The notes: generated by a model from the letters alone, not told the origin. Shown: positions 39,861-47,918, numbered from the stretch's first letter. The stretch is 64,000 bases of DNA from Gemmatimonadales bacterium (GCA_035943095.1 DASZCN010000101.1:19614-83613), one strand, 5' to 3'. A program made the numbers and translations.

Positions 39861-40427
39861 TTGCCACTGGGGAGTCCCTTGCGCTGTCTAGCCCTGAATG
39901 CCTCGTTCGAGCCGCTGACCATGGTGCCCGTGCGCCGGGCGCTGCGGCTGGTCATCGACCACAAGGCCGAGATCGTCGAAGCAGACGGCCCCGTGGTGAA
40001 GAGCGAGCGCCTGGCGATCCCCCGGCCGGCGGTCATCCGTCTGGTAAAGTTCGTCCACGTGCCGCGGCGCTTCCGGCGCCAGGTCACGAATACGTTCCTG
40101 TTCGCCCGCGACAACTACCGCTGCCAGTTCTGCGGGCGAAGCCAGCCGGAATTGCGGCACCGGGAGTGCTTAACGCGTGACCACCTGGTGCCGCTTTCGC
40201 GTGGAGGCACGAACGCCTGGACCAACGTGCTCACGGCGTGCAGCTCGTGCAACACGCGTAAGGGCAATTTGCTACCCGAAGAGGCCGGCATGCACCCACT
40301 GCGGCCGCCCTTCGAGCCCCACTTTGTGCACCTTGCCTGGGCCGTGCGGCGCCTGACCTCGATCCAGTCCAAGTACATCCGGCTGTTCTACGGCGGCCAG
40401 GTCCTCGCGACCCTCGAGGCGCTCTGA
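39861..40427 (+). CDS. HNH endonuclease (stand-alone, McrA-like)
   Basis: LNASFEPL..., DNYRCQFCGR...LTRDHLVPLSRGGTNAWTNVLTACSSCNTRK (CxxC...H-N-H...CxxC). The start is TTG 39861 or a nearby TTG. Confidence 0.85.
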   Translation: MPLGSPLRCLALNASFEPLTMVPVRRALRLVIDHKAEIVEADGPVVKSERLAIPRPAVIRLVKFVHVPRRFRRQVTNTFLFARDNYRCQFCGRSQPELRHRECLTRDHLVPLSRGGTNAWTNVLTACSSCNTRKGNLLPEEAGMHPLRPPFEPHFVHLAWAVRRLTSIQSKYIRLFYGGQVLATLEAL

Positions 40428-40828
40428 CGCAGAAGCTTCCCTGGACGATCGCAGGGGCAGCGGCGGTCGCCGCCGTCGCCGTGCTGGCGACAAATAAGGG
40501 CGCCGCGAGCACGGTGCCGCACCCCGATCCGCGCCCTGGGGTGACGGCCGAGCGGGTGTTGGCTCCTTCCCTGATACCAAACACGGCCGGTGCGGGAGAA
40601 GCCTACGCTGCCGCACGGAGCGTCCCCCGCATGCTCGACGGCCTGTACTGCCATTGCGATTGCTCTAAGCATTTCGGGCACCGCTCGCTGCTCACGTGCT
40701 TCGAGTCCGACCACGGCGGCCGGTGCGACATCTGCATGGGAGAAGCGATGCTCGCGGCCCAGCTGGCCTCCAGGGGTGGCTCCCTCGACGACATCCGCCG
40801 CGCGATAGATCTGCGTTTCGGCTCTTAG
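40424..40828 (+). CDS. CYCXC/PCYCGC-motif family-like membrane-anchored Cys-rich protein (5' end uncertain: CTG 40424 or GTG 40481)
   Basis: MLDGLYCHCDCSKHFGHRSLLTCFESDHGGRCDICMGEA shows the motif pattern CYCxC...H.S...CF...H...CxxC. A signal-anchor-like segment (TQKLPWTIAGAAAVAAVAVLA) lies in frame upstream of the first canonical start codon. Confidence 0.5.
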   Translation: MTQKLPWTIAGAAAVAAVAVLATNKGAASTVPHPDPRPGVTAERVLAPSLIPNTAGAGEAYAAARSVPRMLDGLYCHCDCSKHFGHRSLLTCFESDHGGRCDICMGEAMLAAQLASRGGSLDDIRRAIDLRFGS

Positions 40829-41448
40829 TTTGCGTCGGGCCGGCTGAACGTCTCCGACCGCGCCTCGAGCGTTAGGCGCGGCAGGCCGGCAATCCGCACG
40901 AGGAGCCGTTGCGCGCCGCGAGACAACGCATCGCCCAGATTGCCACCGCCTGAGACCGCCGGGCTGACGTCCCCCTTAAGCCAGCGCGTGAGTTCTTCCA
41001 AGTCTGTCTCGTTGAGCGTGGTGACCGCGAGCCTGCAGAGGACGTAGTAATTCCCACTGCCCAGGGGCTTGAGGGTCACGCGATAGGGAATCTCGAACGC
41101 TTGCTCCAGGTCGTCGGCTGACCCGTAGCGGGCCACCGACCCCCCGGTCCGGATCAAGACGAAGTCGTCGGCGAGTGGATCGTGGCGCGCCACCGCGTCC
41201 CAGAACCGATCTGTGATGTGCTGATCGAACCACCCGGACCGCTCGCGCCACAGCTCCAGACGATAATGGAGGCGGAGAGGGAATCCGGATCGCATTAGCG
41301 TCGTGAATTTTCCGTCGGCGAGCAGGCTCGTGGCCTTCACTCGCGCCACGTCTTTCTGGAGGATGATGGTGAGTGCGGGCGCCTGCGCCCCGGCTCGAGG
41401 AGCCGTGGCGGCGCCGAGCAGGGCCAGGACGACGAGTCCCGGCCTCAC
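40825..41448 (-). CDS. DUF4390-like periplasmic protein
   Basis: Signal peptide VRPGLVVLALLGAATAPRAGAQ, then ...FPLRLHYRLELWRERSGWFDQHI... and ...YYVLCRLAVTTL.... It is the last gene of the kinase/sigma-54 activator operon, the usual genomic context of DUF4390. Confidence 0.55.
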   Translation of the reverse strand: MRPGLVVLALLGAATAPRAGAQAPALTIILQKDVARVKATSLLADGKFTTLMRSGFPLRLHYRLELWRERSGWFDQHITDRFWDAVARHDPLADDFVLIRTGGSVARYGSADDLEQAFEIPYRVTLKPLGSGNYYVLCRLAVTTLNETDLEELTRWLKGDVSPAVSGGGNLGDALSRGAQRLLVRIAGLPRLTLEARSETFSRPDAN

Positions 41449-43224
41449 CTAGAAGCGGTGGTCGAGTCGCAGGGTGAATCGCAACGGCTCTCCGGCCGTC
41501 ACCGCCTTGGCCACATACGCGCCGAATCCGCCCCAATCGACGCCCAGCCCGAGGTCGGCGAGCCAGCTGCCGAGCGTGGGCAGGCGATCGGACGGCAGCC
41601 GCCCGGGCCCGTTCCCGACCAGCCAGGCCTGACCCGCGTCGGCAAGGACGACCAGGTCCAGGCCTCGGAGCGTAAGCAGCGACTTCGACGCCTCGTCGGC
41701 AGGCGTCGAGGAGCCGGATGCCCAGTGCAGCGAGAGGTGCCCACGGTACTCGGCCTGTGCGAGTATCACGCGATCGCACGCTGCCACTTGGGTGTTCGTG
41801 AACGCGGGATCGATGATGTCGCGGTTGCAAGCGCTGTGGCGGAAGCCGTAGCCTGCGAGCGGATCGGGACCGCCAATGGAGAGCCGTTGCTGTAGCGGCA
41901 GCGGGTCGCCGCCGATCCAGCCACCGGCGAGCACCCGCAGGTTCACCCGGCCTGATGGGCTCACACGCGTGTAGCGCCGGAAATCGAAAAACAGCCGGTT
42001 GAACTGGTACGACCCGTCCGTGGGGACCGGCCCCCGGACCGAGCTGGGCACGCCGGTCTGGGGCTTCACATCGCCGGAGCTCGAGTGCTCGAAGCGGGCG
42101 CGGAGGAACCACCCCGCCGTCGGGTCGAGTCGATCGTTGCGCGTATCGAAGCTGACCGTCGTCCGAACGGTGGTGTAGTGGCCATCGTCGATCGGCGGGT
42201 TGGGGCGCCAGGCCTGGTCGTTGCGGAACACCGTCCACGGGTCGCGGGCCGCGACGGTCGTCTGCCAGTCGTGATGCAGCTCGAGGTCGAGGCGTAACGG
42301 CCGGTCCGGTTGCACGAACACGCGCCCGGCGAGGCCCTTGCTCAGGTAGTAGTCCCGATAGTCGCGCTGGAATAGGAACGCCGCCCACCCGACCTCACCG
42401 CTCCTCAAGCCCCAGTCCTCGACCGGGGCGACGTCGTCGAAGGCGCGGAACTCGACGCCGTACGCGGGGAGCTCACCCGTGCGGAGCTCGGTCCTGAACA
42501 GGTAGCCCAGATCGCTCCGCTTGTCGGTGAAATCGCCGGCGGTGCGGAAGATGCCCAGGGCATCGATGTGCAGCCGCACGTTCTGATGGAGCCTCCAGTC
42601 GAACAAGGGGCCGAACGCGACGGGCAACCCCTCCACCCGATTGAACGTGCCACCGGTCGCGAGCGAGAGGGATGAGCGCGAATCCGCTGTCCCCCACGAC
42701 TTCTCGATCCCGAGGCTTTGGAACCAGCGCCGCAGATCGGGCGGCGCGAGCGCGATCTCCTCGCCCTTGACGCGATAGGTGAGTGGCGCCGGGTACACGT
42801 GGACCACTCCCCCAACGGTGGCGGTCGAGCGACGCGCTACGGTCCCGCCGACCACGATCACGTCGCCCGTCACCACCGCCCCGGAGTCGAGGATCGCGTC
42901 GCCGTTGATCACGAGGAGGGTTCCGTCGATCCGTCCTGCGAGGACCACGCCGCCGTTGCGTATCGCGACATCGCCCCGCCATTCGTTGCCGGCGGGCAGC
43001 CGGGACCGACCCACGAGTCGCGTGGTGGTCGGCGCGTTGTACCGGCGTACGGCATCTTCCGCCACCTCGCGCGGCAGCTCCGGCGGTCGGACGAAGACGC
43101 CGCCGCTTTCCGGTTGGATGACGATGGCCGTGTCCTGCGCGGCGGCGAGGCCGGGGGACAACGCACAGAGGGCCAGAAGCACGGAGAGACGCATAACGGA
43201 GATCCTGGTTTGGGCAGGGTTCAT
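41449..43224 (-). CDS. Omp85/BamA-TamA-family outer-membrane beta-barrel with N-terminal bactofilin-like beta-helix segment, no obvious POTRA
   Basis: Signal peptide MRLSVLLALCALSPGLAAAQD. Repeats: GDVAIRNGGVVLAGRIDGTLLVINGDAILDSGAVVTGDVIVVGGTV. Barrel motifs: LSIGGPDPLAGYGF, VLADAGQAW, and a C-terminal ...LRLDHRF. The ATG at 43224 overlaps the upstream stop (ATGA). Confidence 0.7.
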   Translation of the reverse strand: MNPAQTRISVMRLSVLLALCALSPGLAAAQDTAIVIQPESGGVFVRPPELPREVAEDAVRRYNAPTTTRLVGRSRLPAGNEWRGDVAIRNGGVVLAGRIDGTLLVINGDAILDSGAVVTGDVIVVGGTVARRSTATVGGVVHVYPAPLTYRVKGEEIALAPPDLRRWFQSLGIEKSWGTADSRSSLSLATGGTFNRVEGLPVAFGPLFDWRLHQNVRLHIDALGIFRTAGDFTDKRSDLGYLFRTELRTGELPAYGVEFRAFDDVAPVEDWGLRSGEVGWAAFLFQRDYRDYYLSKGLAGRVFVQPDRPLRLDLELHHDWQTTVAARDPWTVFRNDQAWRPNPPIDDGHYTTVRTTVSFDTRNDRLDPTAGWFLRARFEHSSSGDVKPQTGVPSSVRGPVPTDGSYQFNRLFFDFRRYTRVSPSGRVNLRVLAGGWIGGDPLPLQQRLSIGGPDPLAGYGFRHSACNRDIIDPAFTNTQVAACDRVILAQAEYRGHLSLHWASGSSTPADEASKSLLTLRGLDLVVLADAGQAWLVGNGPGRLPSDRLPTLGSWLADLGLGVDWGGFGAYVAKAVTAGEPLRFTLRLDHRF

Positions 43225-44606
43225 CCCGCTACGTTGCGCGGAGGCTCGAGCCCCAGTCGGCGCATGCGGCGATAGAGATTGGCGCGATCGGTGGCGAGCC
43301 GGCGCGCGGCCTCGGCCACGTTGCCACGCGCGGCCGAGAGGGCGCGCGCGATGAGCGAGCGCTCGAACCCGTCGAGCGCTTCCGCCAGCCCGATGTCCGT
43401 CCACCCCTCGGGCGCAGGGGCGGGGGCTCCTCCGCCGTCCGTCGGCACGAGGCGGGCGACGTCGTCCGCAGTCACTACATCCCCCGCGGCGAGGATCGCG
43501 AGCCGCTCGAGGATGTTCGCCAGCTCGCGAGCATTCCCGGGCCATGGATACGACGTGAGGAGCTGCACCGCGCCGGCGTCGAACCGGACGGGACGTCCGC
43601 CCCCCAAGCGCGCCGCCAGCCGGGCGGCGAAATGCTGCACCAGCGGCGGGATGTCGTCGGGCCGCTCCCGCAGCGGCGCAATGTGGATCGGCAGGACATT
43701 CAGCCGGAACAGGAGGTCGTCCCGGAAGTGACCCAGTTGTGACGCCTTCCCGAGGTCCTTGTTGGTCGCCGCGATCACCCGGACGTCCACCCGAACGGGC
43801 TTTTCGCCTCCCAGGCGCTCGATCACGCCGGCTTCGAGTACGCGCAGGAGCTTGGCTTGCGCTTCGGGCCCGAGATCGCCGACTTCATCGAGGAATAACG
43901 TTCCGCCGTCGGCCAGCTCGAAACGGCCGACGCGGCGTTCCGTGGCGCCCGTGAATGCGCCGCGCTCGTGCCCGAACATCTCCGATTCCACCAGGTCCTT
44001 CGGGATGGCCGCGCTGTTCACGCAGACGAACGGCCGCGCGGCCCGCGCGCTCTGCCGGTGGATGGCGGAGGCCACGAGCTCCTTGCCGGTGCCCGATTCG
44101 CCCGTGATCAGGACCCGCGCATCGGTCGGCGCCACGCGCGCGATCAGCGCTCGAAGGTCCACCATCGCCTTGCTCACGCCGACCAGTGGGTCGGCGTGCC
44201 CGAGGGCCTCGTGCAAGCGCCGGTTCTCCGCGAGCGTGCGCGACAGCTCGAGCGCCGCCCGGAGCGTCGAGAGCACGCCTTCGGGCGTCAACGGCTTCTC
44301 GAGGAACTGAAAGGCACCGAGCTTGGTCGCCTTCACTGCGTCGGCGAGGTTTGCCTTACCACTCATCATCACCACGGGCAGGTCCGGCGCTACCCGCTTG
44401 AGTTGCTCGAGGGTCGCGAGGCCGTCCGGTCCACCCGGCATCATCAGGTCGAGCAGTACGGCGTCCGGCGGATCCCGCTCCACAGCCGCCAGTGCCGCCG
44501 TTCCGTTGGGGGCTTCCGCGGTTTCGAAACCCTCCGACTCGAGCAGTGCCGCGACCATGCGGCGGATGTTCGCCTCGTCGTCGGCGAGCAGGACGCGAGG
44601 GCTCAT
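43221..44606 (-). CDS. Sigma-54-dependent response regulator (NtrC/NtrX family)
   Basis: Receiver: VLLADDE...LLDLMMPG. AAA+ domain: GESGTGKELVA, GAFTGA, TLFLDEVGDL. C-terminal HTH: GNVAEAARRLATDRANLYRRM. The ATG at 44606 overlaps the kinase stop (ATGA). Confidence 0.92.
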   Translation of the reverse strand: MSPRVLLADDEANIRRMVAALLESEGFETAEAPNGTAALAAVERDPPDAVLLDLMMPGGPDGLATLEQLKRVAPDLPVVMMSGKANLADAVKATKLGAFQFLEKPLTPEGVLSTLRAALELSRTLAENRRLHEALGHADPLVGVSKAMVDLRALIARVAPTDARVLITGESGTGKELVASAIHRQSARAARPFVCVNSAAIPKDLVESEMFGHERGAFTGATERRVGRFELADGGTLFLDEVGDLGPEAQAKLLRVLEAGVIERLGGEKPVRVDVRVIAATNKDLGKASQLGHFRDDLLFRLNVLPIHIAPLRERPDDIPPLVQHFAARLAARLGGGRPVRFDAGAVQLLTSYPWPGNARELANILERLAILAAGDVVTADDVARLVPTDGGGAPAPAPEGWTDIGLAEALDGFERSLIARALSAARGNVAEAARRLATDRANLYRRMRRLGLEPPRNVAG

Positions 44607-45796
44607 GCGGCCGAGAGCACGACGGCAAAGGTGGCGCCGCCGCCCGGCGTCTCGGCGATGCTGATGGTGCCGTGGTGCGCCTCGATGGTCTGGCGCACGA
44701 GCGCGAGCCCAAGCCCGGTCCCGTCCTGTTTGGTCGTGAAGTACGGATCGAACACGCGCTGGCGCAGATCGTCGGGAATGCCGGGGCCGTGATCGGCGAT
44801 GGTCACCAGCAGACCGGCTCCGTCCGTGGTTACTCCGACCTCGATCGCGCCCCGGCCGCCCATCGCCTCCGCGGCGTTGCGGAGCAGGTTCGCGAACGCC
44901 CGCCGCAGCGGGTCGTAGTACCCGAGCACCCGGCACGATCCGCCATTGGCGCGAACGCGCACGTCCACCGCGGGCGGCACGGCGCTCTTTCCCAGATCCA
45001 TGAGCAGGTCCACCAGGTCCACCTCGCTCTTCGGTCCCTCGGGCAGCCGGCCGAACTCAGAAAACTCCTTGGCGAGCCGCTCGAGCCGCTCGGTTTCCGC
45101 CGACATCACATCGATCGCGACGCCGGTCCGGCTGTCCGACCGGCCGTCCGTCCGCCGCATCTGATCGACGGCGATGCGCATGGCCGTGAGCGGGTTCTTG
45201 ATCTCGTGTGCCACGCGCCGCGCCACCTCGCGGAACGCCCGCAGCCGCTCCGCCTCGAGCTCGCGGTCCCGCGCGGTCTCGAGCGCGGTCGCGAGCTCGC
45301 GCAACGCCTGGCGCAGCGCCTCGAACTCGGGCGCTCCGCGCGTGGGGGGGCCTGCCGGCAGCGGCATGCGACGCCGGATGAATCGCGTCCACCCGACCAG
45401 CTCGTCGATCGGCCGGGAGAGCTGGCGTGACAAATGACCCGCAACTCGCACCGCCGCGATGATCACCAGCGCCCCGAACACGATCACGACCGCCGCGAAC
45501 CCGCCCGCGTAATAGCGCAGGTAGGTTTCGGCGCGGCGGGCGAGCGTCACGGAATTCGAGAGCTGCTCGAGATGGTCACGCATGGCGGCCCGCTCACGAG
45601 CCGTGAGGTGTGTCGTATCCACTCGGTCCACCATGTGCCGGGCCGACGCCGCCACCTCCTCCAGCGCGACGCGTGCTCCGGCCGAGGGCGCGACGGTTCG
45701 CACGGCGAGCGCCCAGCCCACCACGGCGAGGGCGGTCGGGACGGCAGTCAACGCGACGAGGATCACGAAGATCCGCTGCCGGAAGGGAAGCGGCAT
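44603..45796 (-). CDS. Membrane sensor histidine kinase (two TM, HAMP, HisKA-HATPase; NtrY-like)
   Basis: H-box: VAHEIKNPLTAMRIAVDQM. N-box: LLRNAAEAM. G-boxes: DHGPGIP and GTGLGLALV. Confidence 0.88.
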   Translation of the reverse strand: MPLPFRQRIFVILVALTAVPTALAVVGWALAVRTVAPSAGARVALEEVAASARHMVDRVDTTHLTARERAAMRDHLEQLSNSVTLARRAETYLRYYAGGFAAVVIVFGALVIIAAVRVAGHLSRQLSRPIDELVGWTRFIRRRMPLPAGPPTRGAPEFEALRQALRELATALETARDRELEAERLRAFREVARRVAHEIKNPLTAMRIAVDQMRRTDGRSDSRTGVAIDVMSAETERLERLAKEFSEFGRLPEGPKSEVDLVDLLMDLGKSAVPPAVDVRVRANGGSCRVLGYYDPLRRAFANLLRNAAEAMGGRGAIEVGVTTDGAGLLVTIADHGPGIPDDLRQRVFDPYFTTKQDGTGLGLALVRQTIEAHHGTISIAETPGGGATFAVVLSAA

Positions 45797-45863
45797 ATTT
45801 CAAGGCCAATCTAGGGGTTCGGCTTTCGTGTGACAATTCGACACGGTCGAAAGAAACCAAAAT

Positions 45864-45947
45864 GGGAGAGGGGAGAAGGGAGAGGTTCGCTCGTGCAACG
45901 CAACTCACCTTGCGCTGGAGCGTACCTCTCCCCTCTCCCTTCTCCCC
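45864..45947. repeat. Oligopurine/oligopyrimidine long hairpin in the kinase/yjbQ divergent spacer
   Basis: gggagaggggagaagggagaggt (45864-45886) pairs with acctctcccctctcccttctcccc (45924-45947). That is 23 positions with 1 mismatch and 1 G-T. The 37-nt loop is itself partly self-complementary. The 15-mer cctctcccctctccc recurs at 5076-5090. Confidence 0.8.
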
Positions 45948-45959
45948 GGCGAGGAGACG

Positions 45960-46379
45960 ATGCGGAGCCATACTCACTACCTCTGGTTCAATACCAAGTC
46001 CCGCCAGGAAATCATCGACATCACCGACCAGGTGGCCCAGCAGGTACGCGAGAGCGGCGTGGTCGAGGGCCTGACGCTGGTCAGCGCCATGCACATCACC
46101 GCGTCCGTATTCGTGAACGATCACGAATCGGGGCTATGGTCTGATATCCTGAAGTGGCTCGAGACCACGGTCGCCCCGTGGGACCCCAAGCGGTATCGCC
46201 ACAACGAGACCGGGGAAGACAACGCGGCGGCTCACCTGCGCAGCCTTACGATCGGGCACGAGGTGATCGTGCCGGTGACCGCCGGCAAGCTCGACCTCGG
46301 GCCCTGGCAACGCGTGTTCTACGGGGAGTGGGATGGCCAGCGCAAGAAGCGCGTGGTCATCAAGGTGCTGGGGGAGTAG
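45960..46379 (+). CDS. yjbQ: YjbQ/UPF0047 family protein (secondary thiamine-phosphate synthase-like)
   Basis: [39 protein letters not shown]...[39 protein letters not shown]. This is the canonical family sequence. An RBS (gaggag) precedes the ATG. Confidence 0.9.
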
Positions 46380-47412
46380 CGGAAATGAGAGTGCTCTCGG
46401 TTAGGAAGTCGCGTCCGCCTCCCCTGGTCTTGATGAGCCAACCGCGGTCCTTGCTCGCCCACAACGTGAGCGGTGTTTCGTCTCCAGTTCGCATCTCAAT
46501 TTTCCAGCAATTAAATCGCCCGGCGGGAACGTCAATTCGGTCGCTCCCGAGGACTCTGAAGTCGAGAGGTGGGAACGGCGAGGCGCCTGGAACGCGACCG
46601 ATCAGGCCGACCGAATACACGCTGCCTTGCCACCCCCGGACCAGCGGAAGCGCCTGCAGCAGCATGGCGACGTCGTAGCGGGCCCACCGTAACACCAGTG
46701 GCGCGTCCTCGGCAGTGGGAAGTTTCGCCCTCGCGCGCCAGCTCCGAGGGTGAGGTCCGGTAATGTCGACTGCTTCACGCAGGCTGTCATGAGCGAAGTG
46801 CCGAGCGGCGTGAATCCGCTCGCCCGTCATGGACCATTCGATCGGCCGGAGCGTTTGCCGCACGAAGTACGTTGTGTCGGGCGGAACGTAGAATGTGTCC
46901 CCAGTCGGAGTCTGACCCACCAGCTTTTGAATCATCAGCCACGCAGGCTGTTCTGCCCGCACCGCCTCACGGACCGTAATCGTCAAACGATTGTGGCACT
47001 TGGTGAGAACCTCGTCTATCGTGGCGCACATGTCGTACGTCCAAGTTCCCGCCTGAACTCGCGACGCGTCCACGTGGCGTACCAGGTCGTATCGAGGGGC
47101 GCGAGGCGGACCTGTCTGCTGGGCCAGCGCCGCTCGGGGCCACAGTGACAGCGCTGCAGCAATGTCCTCATAGCCGGTATCGGAGGCAACAGGACTCCGC
47201 TCGCGAATGCGTGAGCTCATCACGACGGCCAGCGCTACCCCTGCGGCGACTGCGCCGACGATCCAGCGCGTGCGATCGCGGCTTACGTGCGGGAGGGCTA
47301 CGCGGATTCCGGTAGCCCTGCTCTCGAGGATTTTGGGCAACAGGTGCGGCGGCGGCTCGGGCGCGGTCAATGCCCTGAGCCCTCGTTGAATCTCGTCGAC
47401 CGTTCTCTTCAT
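46360..47412 (-). CDS. Putative anti-sigma factor: short cytoplasmic N-terminus, one TM, about 280-aa extracytoplasmic domain
   Basis: The ATG at 47412 overlaps the ECF sigma stop (ATGA). The TM segment is [16 protein letters not shown]. There is no HxxxCxxC zinc motif. The C-terminal domain is unassigned. Confidence 0.5.
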
Positions 47413-47918
47413 CGCCCATCCTCCAGTGCCTTGCGGAGACGTCGCAGCGCGCGGGCCGCGCGCACGCGCGAAGCGCCGACGCTGATCCCGAGGAGATCCG
47501 CCACCTCGCCGTGCGAGTAGCCTTCGACCTCTCTGAGCATGACCACGACCCACAACGAGTCGGGAAGCCCGTTCACCGCACTCTCCAACGCCGAGGCATC
47601 CGTGCTGGCGGGGAGAGTCGGTTGCTGATCCGCGAAGTTCAACGGGACCTGGCGGCGGCGGGCGCGGCCCCGCAGCCGCAGGAGCGCGACGCGTGCGGTC
47701 ACGCGTTTCAGCCAGCTCGTGAATTTCCCTCGCTCTTCATACCGAGCGAGCGCCTCGGGAAGGCCGACGAACACGTCGTGCACCACGTCCTCGGCATCCT
47801 CGCGAGTTCCCGTGAGCCGGTATGCCAGGCGATACAGAGCGCCTCCGTGCTCTCGGTAGAGCGCGGCCAGCGCCTCCGGACTACCGGCCCGGACCGCCTC
47901 GATCAAGGCTGCGCTCAT
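47409..47918 (-). CDS. ECF-type RNA polymerase sigma factor (sigma-70 family, regions 2 and 4)
   Basis: ...[14 protein letters not shown]... (region 2) and ...[32 protein letters not shown] (region 4 HTH). Confidence 0.9.

Follow-up and report, generated by a model that had tools for sequence, protein, structure and literature searches.

Why is an outer membrane barrel encoded between a sigma-54-dependent response regulator and a DUF4390-like exported protein, and does it take part in the signalling of its neighbours? This question is raised by four minus-strand genes that span positions 45796-40825 (guanine plus cytosine content, GC, 67-71%) of a window from a Gemmatimonadales bacterium (GCA_035943095.1, DASZCN010000101.1:19614-83613), the window being the whole stretch of 64,000 nucleotides (nt) that was analysed. 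In the direction of transcription the genes are:

44603-45796, minus strand, sensor histidine kinase gene (397 amino acids, aa)
43221-44606, minus strand, sigma-54-dependent response regulator gene (461 aa)
41449-43194, minus strand, Omp85-superfamily barrel gene (581 aa; 591 aa if begun at the ATGA at 43224)
40825-41448, minus strand, DUF4390-like exported protein gene (207 aa; GTG start)

A preliminary description of the window had read them as a self-contained envelope module, in which the barrel and a periplasmic partner are co-expressed in stoichiometric amounts, by means of overlapping genes, with an NtrY/NtrX-like two-component system that could sense them. Comparison of related genomes lends good support to the view that the four genes are a conserved, block-inherited and envelope-linked module of the class Gemmatimonadetes. 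As to its working, we favour with moderate confidence an envelope signalling module in which the sigma-54 regulator drives the barrel/DUF4390 pair and the kinase in turn receives feedback from the DUF4390 protein.

The names of its homologues assign the window to the order Gemmatimonadales. The barrel is present in 40 of the 41 genomes sampled from the order Gemmatimonadales, and the gene order kinase-regulator-barrel-DUF4390 is unbroken in 106/106 Gemmatimonadales loci, consisting of 26 from three families and 80 further ones with one genome per species; shorter gene sets, several of them at contig ends, were excluded from this individual check of the order. Synteny in relatives was one of two points on which the preliminary description had let its module stand or fall, and the four genes are syntenic in every one of these loci. 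The same order recurs outside the Gemmatimonadales, at four loci that belong to other orders and to four other families of the class. In a sample of 121 genomes spread evenly over the phylum, 75 contain a DUF4390-like gene and the same 75 contain a strong barrel match (E<1e-99), always adjacent; in the other 46 neither the barrel nor a DUF4390-like gene was found. The module is flanked upstream by a divergent yjbQ/UPF0047 gene and downstream by a convergent PCYCGC-motif gene and an HNH gene. In two genomes (G072 and G091) yjbQ directly adjoins the HNH gene, the four genes and the PCYCGC gene being missing as one block.

Chance adjacency was considered as well, and is ruled out by the constant order, the strict co-occurrence of barrel and DUF4390 and the clean absence of the block.

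What kind of two-component system heads this module? The domain calls of kinase, sigma-54 activator and Omp85 barrel in the preliminary description hold, and the label NtrY/NtrX-like has to be given up. The only Pfam domains found in the kinase are HisKA and HATPase_c; searches against Pfam and NCBIfam gave no PAS and no PDC domain. With a two-transmembrane topology assigned by hydrophobicity, the kinase consists of a first transmembrane segment (residues 8-32), a helical periplasmic loop of about 65 aa (33-97), a second transmembrane segment (98-118), a HAMP-like linker, HisKA and HATPase_c. Conservation over 68 orthologues is 0.66 in the periplasmic loop and 0.85 in the HAMP-like linker. Its best NCBIfam models are AtoS and ZraS, with scores far under the equivalog cut-offs. 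The regulator combines Response_reg, Sigma54_activat (227.8 bits), an AAA lid and HTH_8 (a Fis-type helix-turn-helix, HTH) and keeps an intact GAFTGA motif, which is exact in 71 of the 77 distinct orthologues and present as G[AS]F[TS]GA in all 77. Moreover, this genome (G000) encodes rpoN and 13 sigma-54 activators. Judged by its REC domain, GAFTGA-bearing AAA+ domain and HTH, and by the presence of rpoN in the genome, the regulator is a sigma-54-dependent member of the NtrC family.

In proteobacteria, to which the available survey was confined, DUF4390 genes always lie beside NtrYX-family systems (Wolber et al. 2026, PMC13001219). The same paper provides genetic evidence that PlrP of Bordetella, a periplasmic DUF4390 protein, is the third component of the NtrYX-family system PlrSR, where it holds down the phosphatase activity of PlrS, probably through the PDC domain of the latter. 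The two-component genes in the window could then be NtrY and NtrX orthologues in their usual DUF4390 context, with the barrel as an unrelated insertion; the regulator indeed reaches 393.1 bits against the NtrX model and has a DUF4390 gene nearby. This score, however, is well under the NtrX cut-off of 600 and also lower than the 431.9 bits for NtrC, which together with AtoC and ZraR gives the best models for the regulator and whose own equivalog cut-off is likewise not reached. The architecture of NtrY is not seen in the kinase, the DUF4390 gene is found on the 3' side of regulator and barrel instead of 5' of the kinase beside rsmB, and the barrel is never missing where DUF4390 is present. We therefore consider orthology to NtrYX extremely improbable.

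In some lineages additional genes are found inside the two-component part: in family f2, one to three small proteins are encoded between kinase and regulator (L016:10490-11076, L018, L019, L020, L021, L023, L121 and L122). They are single-transmembrane proteins of about 90-100 aa with a shared C-terminal helix, RIEQAVDSIAVEIERISEGQRF(T/L)T(R/K)LL, and may be extra modulators of the kinase; tblastn of this genome gave no counterpart of them.

The third gene product matches the Omp85 family PF01103 with 37.5 bits (cut-off 24) over part of the profile, and this family is matched by 14/14 of its orthologues. Its layout comprises a signal peptide, an N-terminal strand-rich, beta-helix-like domain and a barrel of about 16 strands that ends in ...HRF. 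In the AlphaFold 2 (AF2) model, which has a predicted local distance difference test (pLDDT) score of 72, a helix is followed by a domain of short strands (residues about 38-130 in mature numbering) and by some 16 long strands. Foldseek ranks BamA barrels highest for this model (E 5e-10, probability 1.0), at template modelling scores of 0.37 and 0.53, which are modest, and the orthologue profile matches BamA of F. nucleatum (9ccg, E 5e-6), the FADAGRAW stretch included. By its hidden Markov model score above the cut-off and its predicted BamA-like fold, the barrel belongs to the Omp85 superfamily. POTRA families were not found in the 14 orthologues at E<=0.1; Bactofilin is weakly matched by 3/14 and ShlB by 2/14 of them, and DUF5982 gave no match to the barrel. 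In genus g7 the N-terminal domain is absent altogether. Of the lid-lock motifs of Omp85 proteins, (V/L/M)RG(F/Y/W) in loop 6 and FxDxG in strand 13, which were assigned here from alignment and not from structure, the latter is retained as (F/L)ADAG, its Asp being invariant, and can be aligned with the BamA stretch, and the loop-6 candidate reads L(A/P)G(Y/F), the Arg of (L/M)RG(W/Y) being replaced.

Barrels of this kind also occur outside the module. A genome of another order carries a second full-length copy (G065:C90:206765-208492, E 6e-115) away from the module. At L123:7194-10326, in a genome of another class of the phylum (G051), a related Omp85-like barrel of 529 aa is encoded, which has a weak match to DUF5686 too. 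The gene behind it, again abutting, specifies an FG-GAP repeat protein of 513 aa, and the neighbourhood contains no two-component system. As a group, these barrels may commonly act together with the product of the next gene downstream.

The assignment of the fourth gene to DUF4390 draws on its orthologues. The window protein itself matches PF14334 at profile positions 33-100 of 161 with 26.3 bits (E 6e-6), narrowly under the cut-off of 27; 39 of 48 orthologues match at E<=1e-5 (best 1.2e-10) and all 13 order-wide orthologues match as well (best 2.1e-9). By these profile matches the window protein is a divergent branch of the DUF4390 family. It has a hydrophobic N-terminus with an AGA|Q cleavage site, and a signal peptide is conserved in all orthologues. 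Its AF2 model (pLDDT 81) has a strand-rich core (12 strands, 4 helices) and C-terminal helices, and the end of the protein is formed by conserved strands that include an invariant Phe. Neither Foldseek nor a profile search of the PDB returned a solved relative. A profile of the protein retrieved 534 representatives among 1.84 billion proteins, and from these, which are nameless and come without context, relatives outside the phylum are not demonstrable.

How are these genes held together at the level of translation? The preliminary description had listed three junctions. The stop of the kinase and the start of the regulator overlap as ATGA at 44606-44603, and this overlap is kept within the genus. 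Likewise, the barrel stop codon TAG (41451-41449) abuts the GTG at 41448, which is the first codon of the DUF4390-like frame; in nearly every locus this stop and start overlap or lie within 0-2 nt of each other. The conserved junction is consistent with translational re-initiation, and the DUF4390 gene is thus probably translated by re-initiation at the barrel stop. At the junction in between, an ATGA is indeed present at the regulator stop (43224-43221) and the ATG of the GGATGA that ends the regulator gene shares, in this genome, the reading frame of the barrel. It is nevertheless unlikely to be the working start of the barrel, which is probably the conserved ATG at 43194, 27 nt downstream, so that the overlap seems incidental. 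Public barrel homologues are mostly 581 aa long, as expected for a start at 43194; relatives keep both this ATG and the AGGA that precedes it by 8 nt; and in L004/L029, a relative with 92% identity, the ATG of GGATGA stands in a different reading frame from the barrel. The two genes are then separated by a short spacer instead of overlapping:

43195-43220, minus strand, residual 26-nt spacer between regulator and barrel, with Shine-Dalgarno-like AGGA at 43206-43203

In other clades regulator and barrel do overlap in a genuine ATGA.

The close pairing of the barrel with the gene behind it gives rise to another explanation, namely that the barrel translocates the DUF4390 protein or anchors it at the surface, as two-partner or type Vd secretion systems do, and that the two-component system merely regulates the pair. 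The conserved stop-to-start arrangement would suit this, as would the related barrel in other classes that abuts a different exported partner (the FG-GAP protein), the weak ShlB matches and the conserved C-terminal strands with their invariant Phe. Yet the barrel has no POTRA domains and the DUF4390 protein no TPS (two-partner secretion) domain, the FxDxG lid-lock motif that is kept here is typical of closed BamA-like barrels, and the DUF4390 protein of Bordetella is treated as periplasmic (PMC13001219). With these points on both sides, we judge secretion or anchoring to be quite improbable.

Which promoters serve the four genes? A consensus scan of the 5.6 kb between 40500 and 46100 gave only one sigma-70-like site, located upstream of the kinase. 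Two features lie there:

45808-45836, minus strand, sigma-70-type promoter TTGTCA-17 nt-TAGATT, found by consensus scan and conserved in family f1
45830-45844, minus strand, GTGTCGAATTGTCAC motif overlapping the -35 element, a candidate regulator-binding site

The sequence TTGTCAC-N16-CTA(G/A)ATT is conserved near -40 of the kinase start in most family f1 loci. Since the -10 element ends 12 nt ahead of the kinase ATG, the leader would be very short. No sigma-54 site scoring >=17 in our in-house scoring scheme was found within or upstream of the operon in the window, a terminator scan of 40500-46100 gave no signal above shuffled expectation, and Rfam gave no match in 40000-46500. Because there is a single conserved sigma-70-type promoter and no terminator above chance, the four genes of this genome most likely form one constitutive transcription unit.

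In the intergenic region between the divergent yjbQ and kinase genes, the window also contains a long oligopurine/oligopyrimidine inverted repeat at 45864-45947 (GGGGAGAAGGGAGAGG...CCTCTCCCTTCTCCCC); at the equivalent position in L024 a different repeat is found (GCGGAATGCG...). Farther upstream, the protein encoded at 46360-47553 (minus strand), after a gene for an extracytoplasmic function (ECF) sigma factor (47409-47918), matches DUF3108 with its residues 226-372 (E 8.7e-6).

Many relatives are organised differently. Their regulator stop and barrel start are separated by a spacer of 60-170 nt that contains CGGCAC-N5-(A/G)TGCA, which closely resembles TGGCAC-N5-TTGCA, the sigma-54 consensus, and in most spacer-bearing f1 loci this motif lies 41-50 nt upstream of the barrel ATG. 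An alignment of 23 spacers revealed conservation of only the -24/-12 elements, the regulator-stop region and the ribosome-binding region, the remainder being variable. Sigma-54-type sites occur at this place also in family f3, in one f2 genus (L016), in other orders (L110 and L111) and in L114 and L121. In L110 the site is preceded by a terminator with a hairpin and a T-run, and in L121, a complete genome of 4,636,964 base pairs (bp), the promoter TGGTACGTGTCTTGCT reads TGGTAC-N5-TTGCT. Overall, 23 of 77 distinct loci, deep branches included, have the promoter and the other 54 lack it. On a tree of regulator plus barrel at least 12 changes of promoter state are needed, 9 of which are forced by well-supported branches. 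Deep branches carry a homologous promoter, so that repeated loss explains its distribution most simply, and we infer that the spacer form with its sigma-54 promoter is the ancestral arrangement. On this comparison the compact form in our genome is a derived, lineage-specific state that has arisen repeatedly. Sequence comparison places a deletion of about 90 nt in this genome, which took out the sigma-54 promoter and the right half of the dyad at the regulator stop. The boundaries of such deletions differ, one being common to L001 and L002 and others being found in L004, where a fragment GCCCAT resembling a promoter remnant is left, and in L012, where GACACGACC is retained before a jump to the ribosome-binding region.

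In L114 (G087:C3) an additional small open reading frame (ORF), of about 75 aa and with an N-terminus resembling a signal peptide, lies between the promoter TGGCACGGCAACTGCC and the barrel gene.

These promoters bear on the claim that overlapping genes ensure stoichiometric co-expression. As a conserved principle it cannot be maintained, many lineages having a separate sigma-54 promoter for the barrel and DUF4390. From the adjacent sigma-54 promoter, the rpoN and activator genes of this genome and the GAFTGA motif in all orthologues we infer that the regulator activates the spacer promoter and that the barrel/DUF4390 pair is its local target. In a search of this genome for sigma-54 promoters, which the preliminary description had proposed as a way to define the regulon, the pattern GGCA[CT]-N5-NTGC[AT] before long ORFs gave 21 candidates, none linked to the regulator. 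Among the 21 are a site (GGCACGGGGATTGCT; G000:C38:29129, plus strand) about 50 nt upstream of an ORF with a DnaK-like N-terminus and another (GGCACGGACGATGCT; G000:C92:79289, plus strand) about 50 nt upstream of an ORF with a Lon-protease-like N-terminus.

The motif that overlaps the kinase promoter may be the binding site of the regulator. The form (C/T)GTGTCGA(A/T)TTGTCAC is kept in about 37 distinct f1 promoters, a similar GTGTC(A/G)-N4-G(T/C)CAC is found on the other strand at the regulator stop of spacer-bearing relatives, and in L121 the sigma-54 promoter is preceded by GACAC-N4-GTGTC. In this genome the strict 15-mer dyad has 8 copies versus 5-25 in shuffles, thus no enrichment, and the loose dyad CGTG[TGA]C-N4-7-G[ATC]CACG is too common in a genome of 68% GC to be informative.

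A sigma-54 promoter right upstream of the barrel/DUF4390 pair is what would be expected of a plain target operon. The two proteins might therefore be nothing but regulated effectors (in outer membrane repair, uptake or export) with no sensing role, and the kinase might sense otherwise, via its transmembrane segments or small loop. A periplasmic loop that is just moderately conserved and the lack of a PDC domain agree with such an output-only role. On the other hand, the sole DUF4390 protein studied so far acts on the neighbouring kinase, and repeated fusion into a constitutive operon would be odd for an inducible effector, while it fits components needed in a fixed ratio. Taken together, a role as mere output appears unlikely to us.

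In the signalling module that we prefer, a constitutive sigma-70-type promoter would supply the membrane kinase and the sigma-54-dependent regulator. In spacer-bearing lineages the phosphorylated regulator would activate the sigma-54 promoter of the barrel/DUF4390 pair, whereas in this genome all four genes would be transcribed as one unit from the sigma-70 promoter. The periplasmic DUF4390 protein would then feed back on the kinase, by analogy with PlrP, ZraP and CpxP, and the barrel could be its partner in the outer membrane, as an anchor or as a sensor of outer membrane state. That the two-component system might sense the barrel/DUF4390 pair, as the preliminary description had suggested, is made more plausible by the control that PlrP exerts on its neighbouring kinase (PMC13001219). 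A trans-envelope relay is a tentative extension of this scheme: the barrel might hold or free the DUF4390 protein according to the state of the outer membrane, the free protein might set the balance between kinase and phosphatase, and the regulator might drive both genes. We hold this specific version to be doubtful; if true, it would extend the concept of DUF4390 as a third component beyond the proteobacteria and add a fourth component in the outer membrane.

Several observations weigh against a signalling module with feedback. The periplasmic loop is among the two least conserved regions of the kinase, which moreover lacks the type of domain (PDC) through which PlrP is thought to act, and the window protein remains 0.7 bits short of the Pfam DUF4390 cut-off. 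The barrel has no sigma-54 promoter ahead of it in this genome and in the 54 of 77 distinct loci mentioned, and a genome-wide scan of this genome gave no convincing second target of the regulator. The dyad put forward as a binding site of the regulator overlaps with coding sequence and shows no genome-wide enrichment. Finally, the FG-GAP-paired barrel in other classes, with no two-component system, fits a barrel plus its cargo equally well.

Which known systems does the module resemble? An outer membrane barrel and a periplasmic go-between that are tied genetically to an inner membrane transducer are also seen in FecA-FecR-FecI and in RcsF threaded through outer membrane proteins (OMPs). The likeness is one of logic only, as the module contains no TonB-dependent receptor, anti-sigma factor or lipoprotein. 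From two-partner secretion the module differs in that TpsB has two POTRA domains and its partner a TPS domain, while the barrel here has no POTRA and its partner is a DUF4390 protein.

In ZraPSR and CpxP-CpxAR, a neighbouring periplasmic accessory gene is the strongest target of the system itself, in the case of Zra via a sigma-54 promoter activated by the regulator. The module shares with these systems a two-component system that adjoins a periplasmic accessory gene, and AtoS/ZraS and NtrC/AtoC/ZraR are the best models for its kinase and regulator. The scores are nevertheless far below the equivalog cut-offs, so the module is not an orthologue; its accessory protein belongs to DUF4390 and does not have the CpxP/ZraP fold, a barrel is included, and the genes are co-directional instead of divergent.

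The barrel is closest to the POTRA-less 'noNterm' group of Omp85 proteins, whose function is unknown (Heinz & Lithgow 2014, PMC4104836; Bettin et al. 2024, PMC11358297). Common traits are the absence of POTRA, the FxDxG motif, here as (F/L)ADAG, the C-terminal Phe and, in the g7 members, the absence of an N-terminal domain. Distinct traits are the beta-helix-like N-terminal domain of about 110 aa in most members, the replaced loop-6 Arg and the fixed linkage to DUF4390 and a sigma-54 two-component system. This linkage offers a candidate function, in signalling or in the handling of a partner, for one group of these poorly understood proteins.

With PlrP-PlrSR the module has in common a gene for an exported DUF4390 protein of about 200 aa that is constantly linked to those of a membrane kinase and an NtrC-family regulator, as well as overlaps of 4 bp between genes. 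In Bordetella, however, plrP lies 5' of the kinase gene beside rsmB, while here the DUF4390 gene comes last, after the barrel, and no rsmB is found near the four genes. PlrS has a PDC sensor domain where the kinase described here has only a loop of 65 aa; the regulator keeps GAFTGA, with adjacent sigma-54 promoters in relatives; the phylum is the Gemmatimonadota; and the barrel is obligatory. The module also provides a natural experiment, as it exists either with a sigma-54 promoter of its own or fused to a constitutive operon, a switch made at least nine times. DUF4390 was assigned its first role only in 2026, and here a distant branch of the family is tied, in another phylum, to a different, sigma-54-dependent system and always to an Omp85-type barrel, which makes the module an independent case for learning what DUF4390 proteins do.

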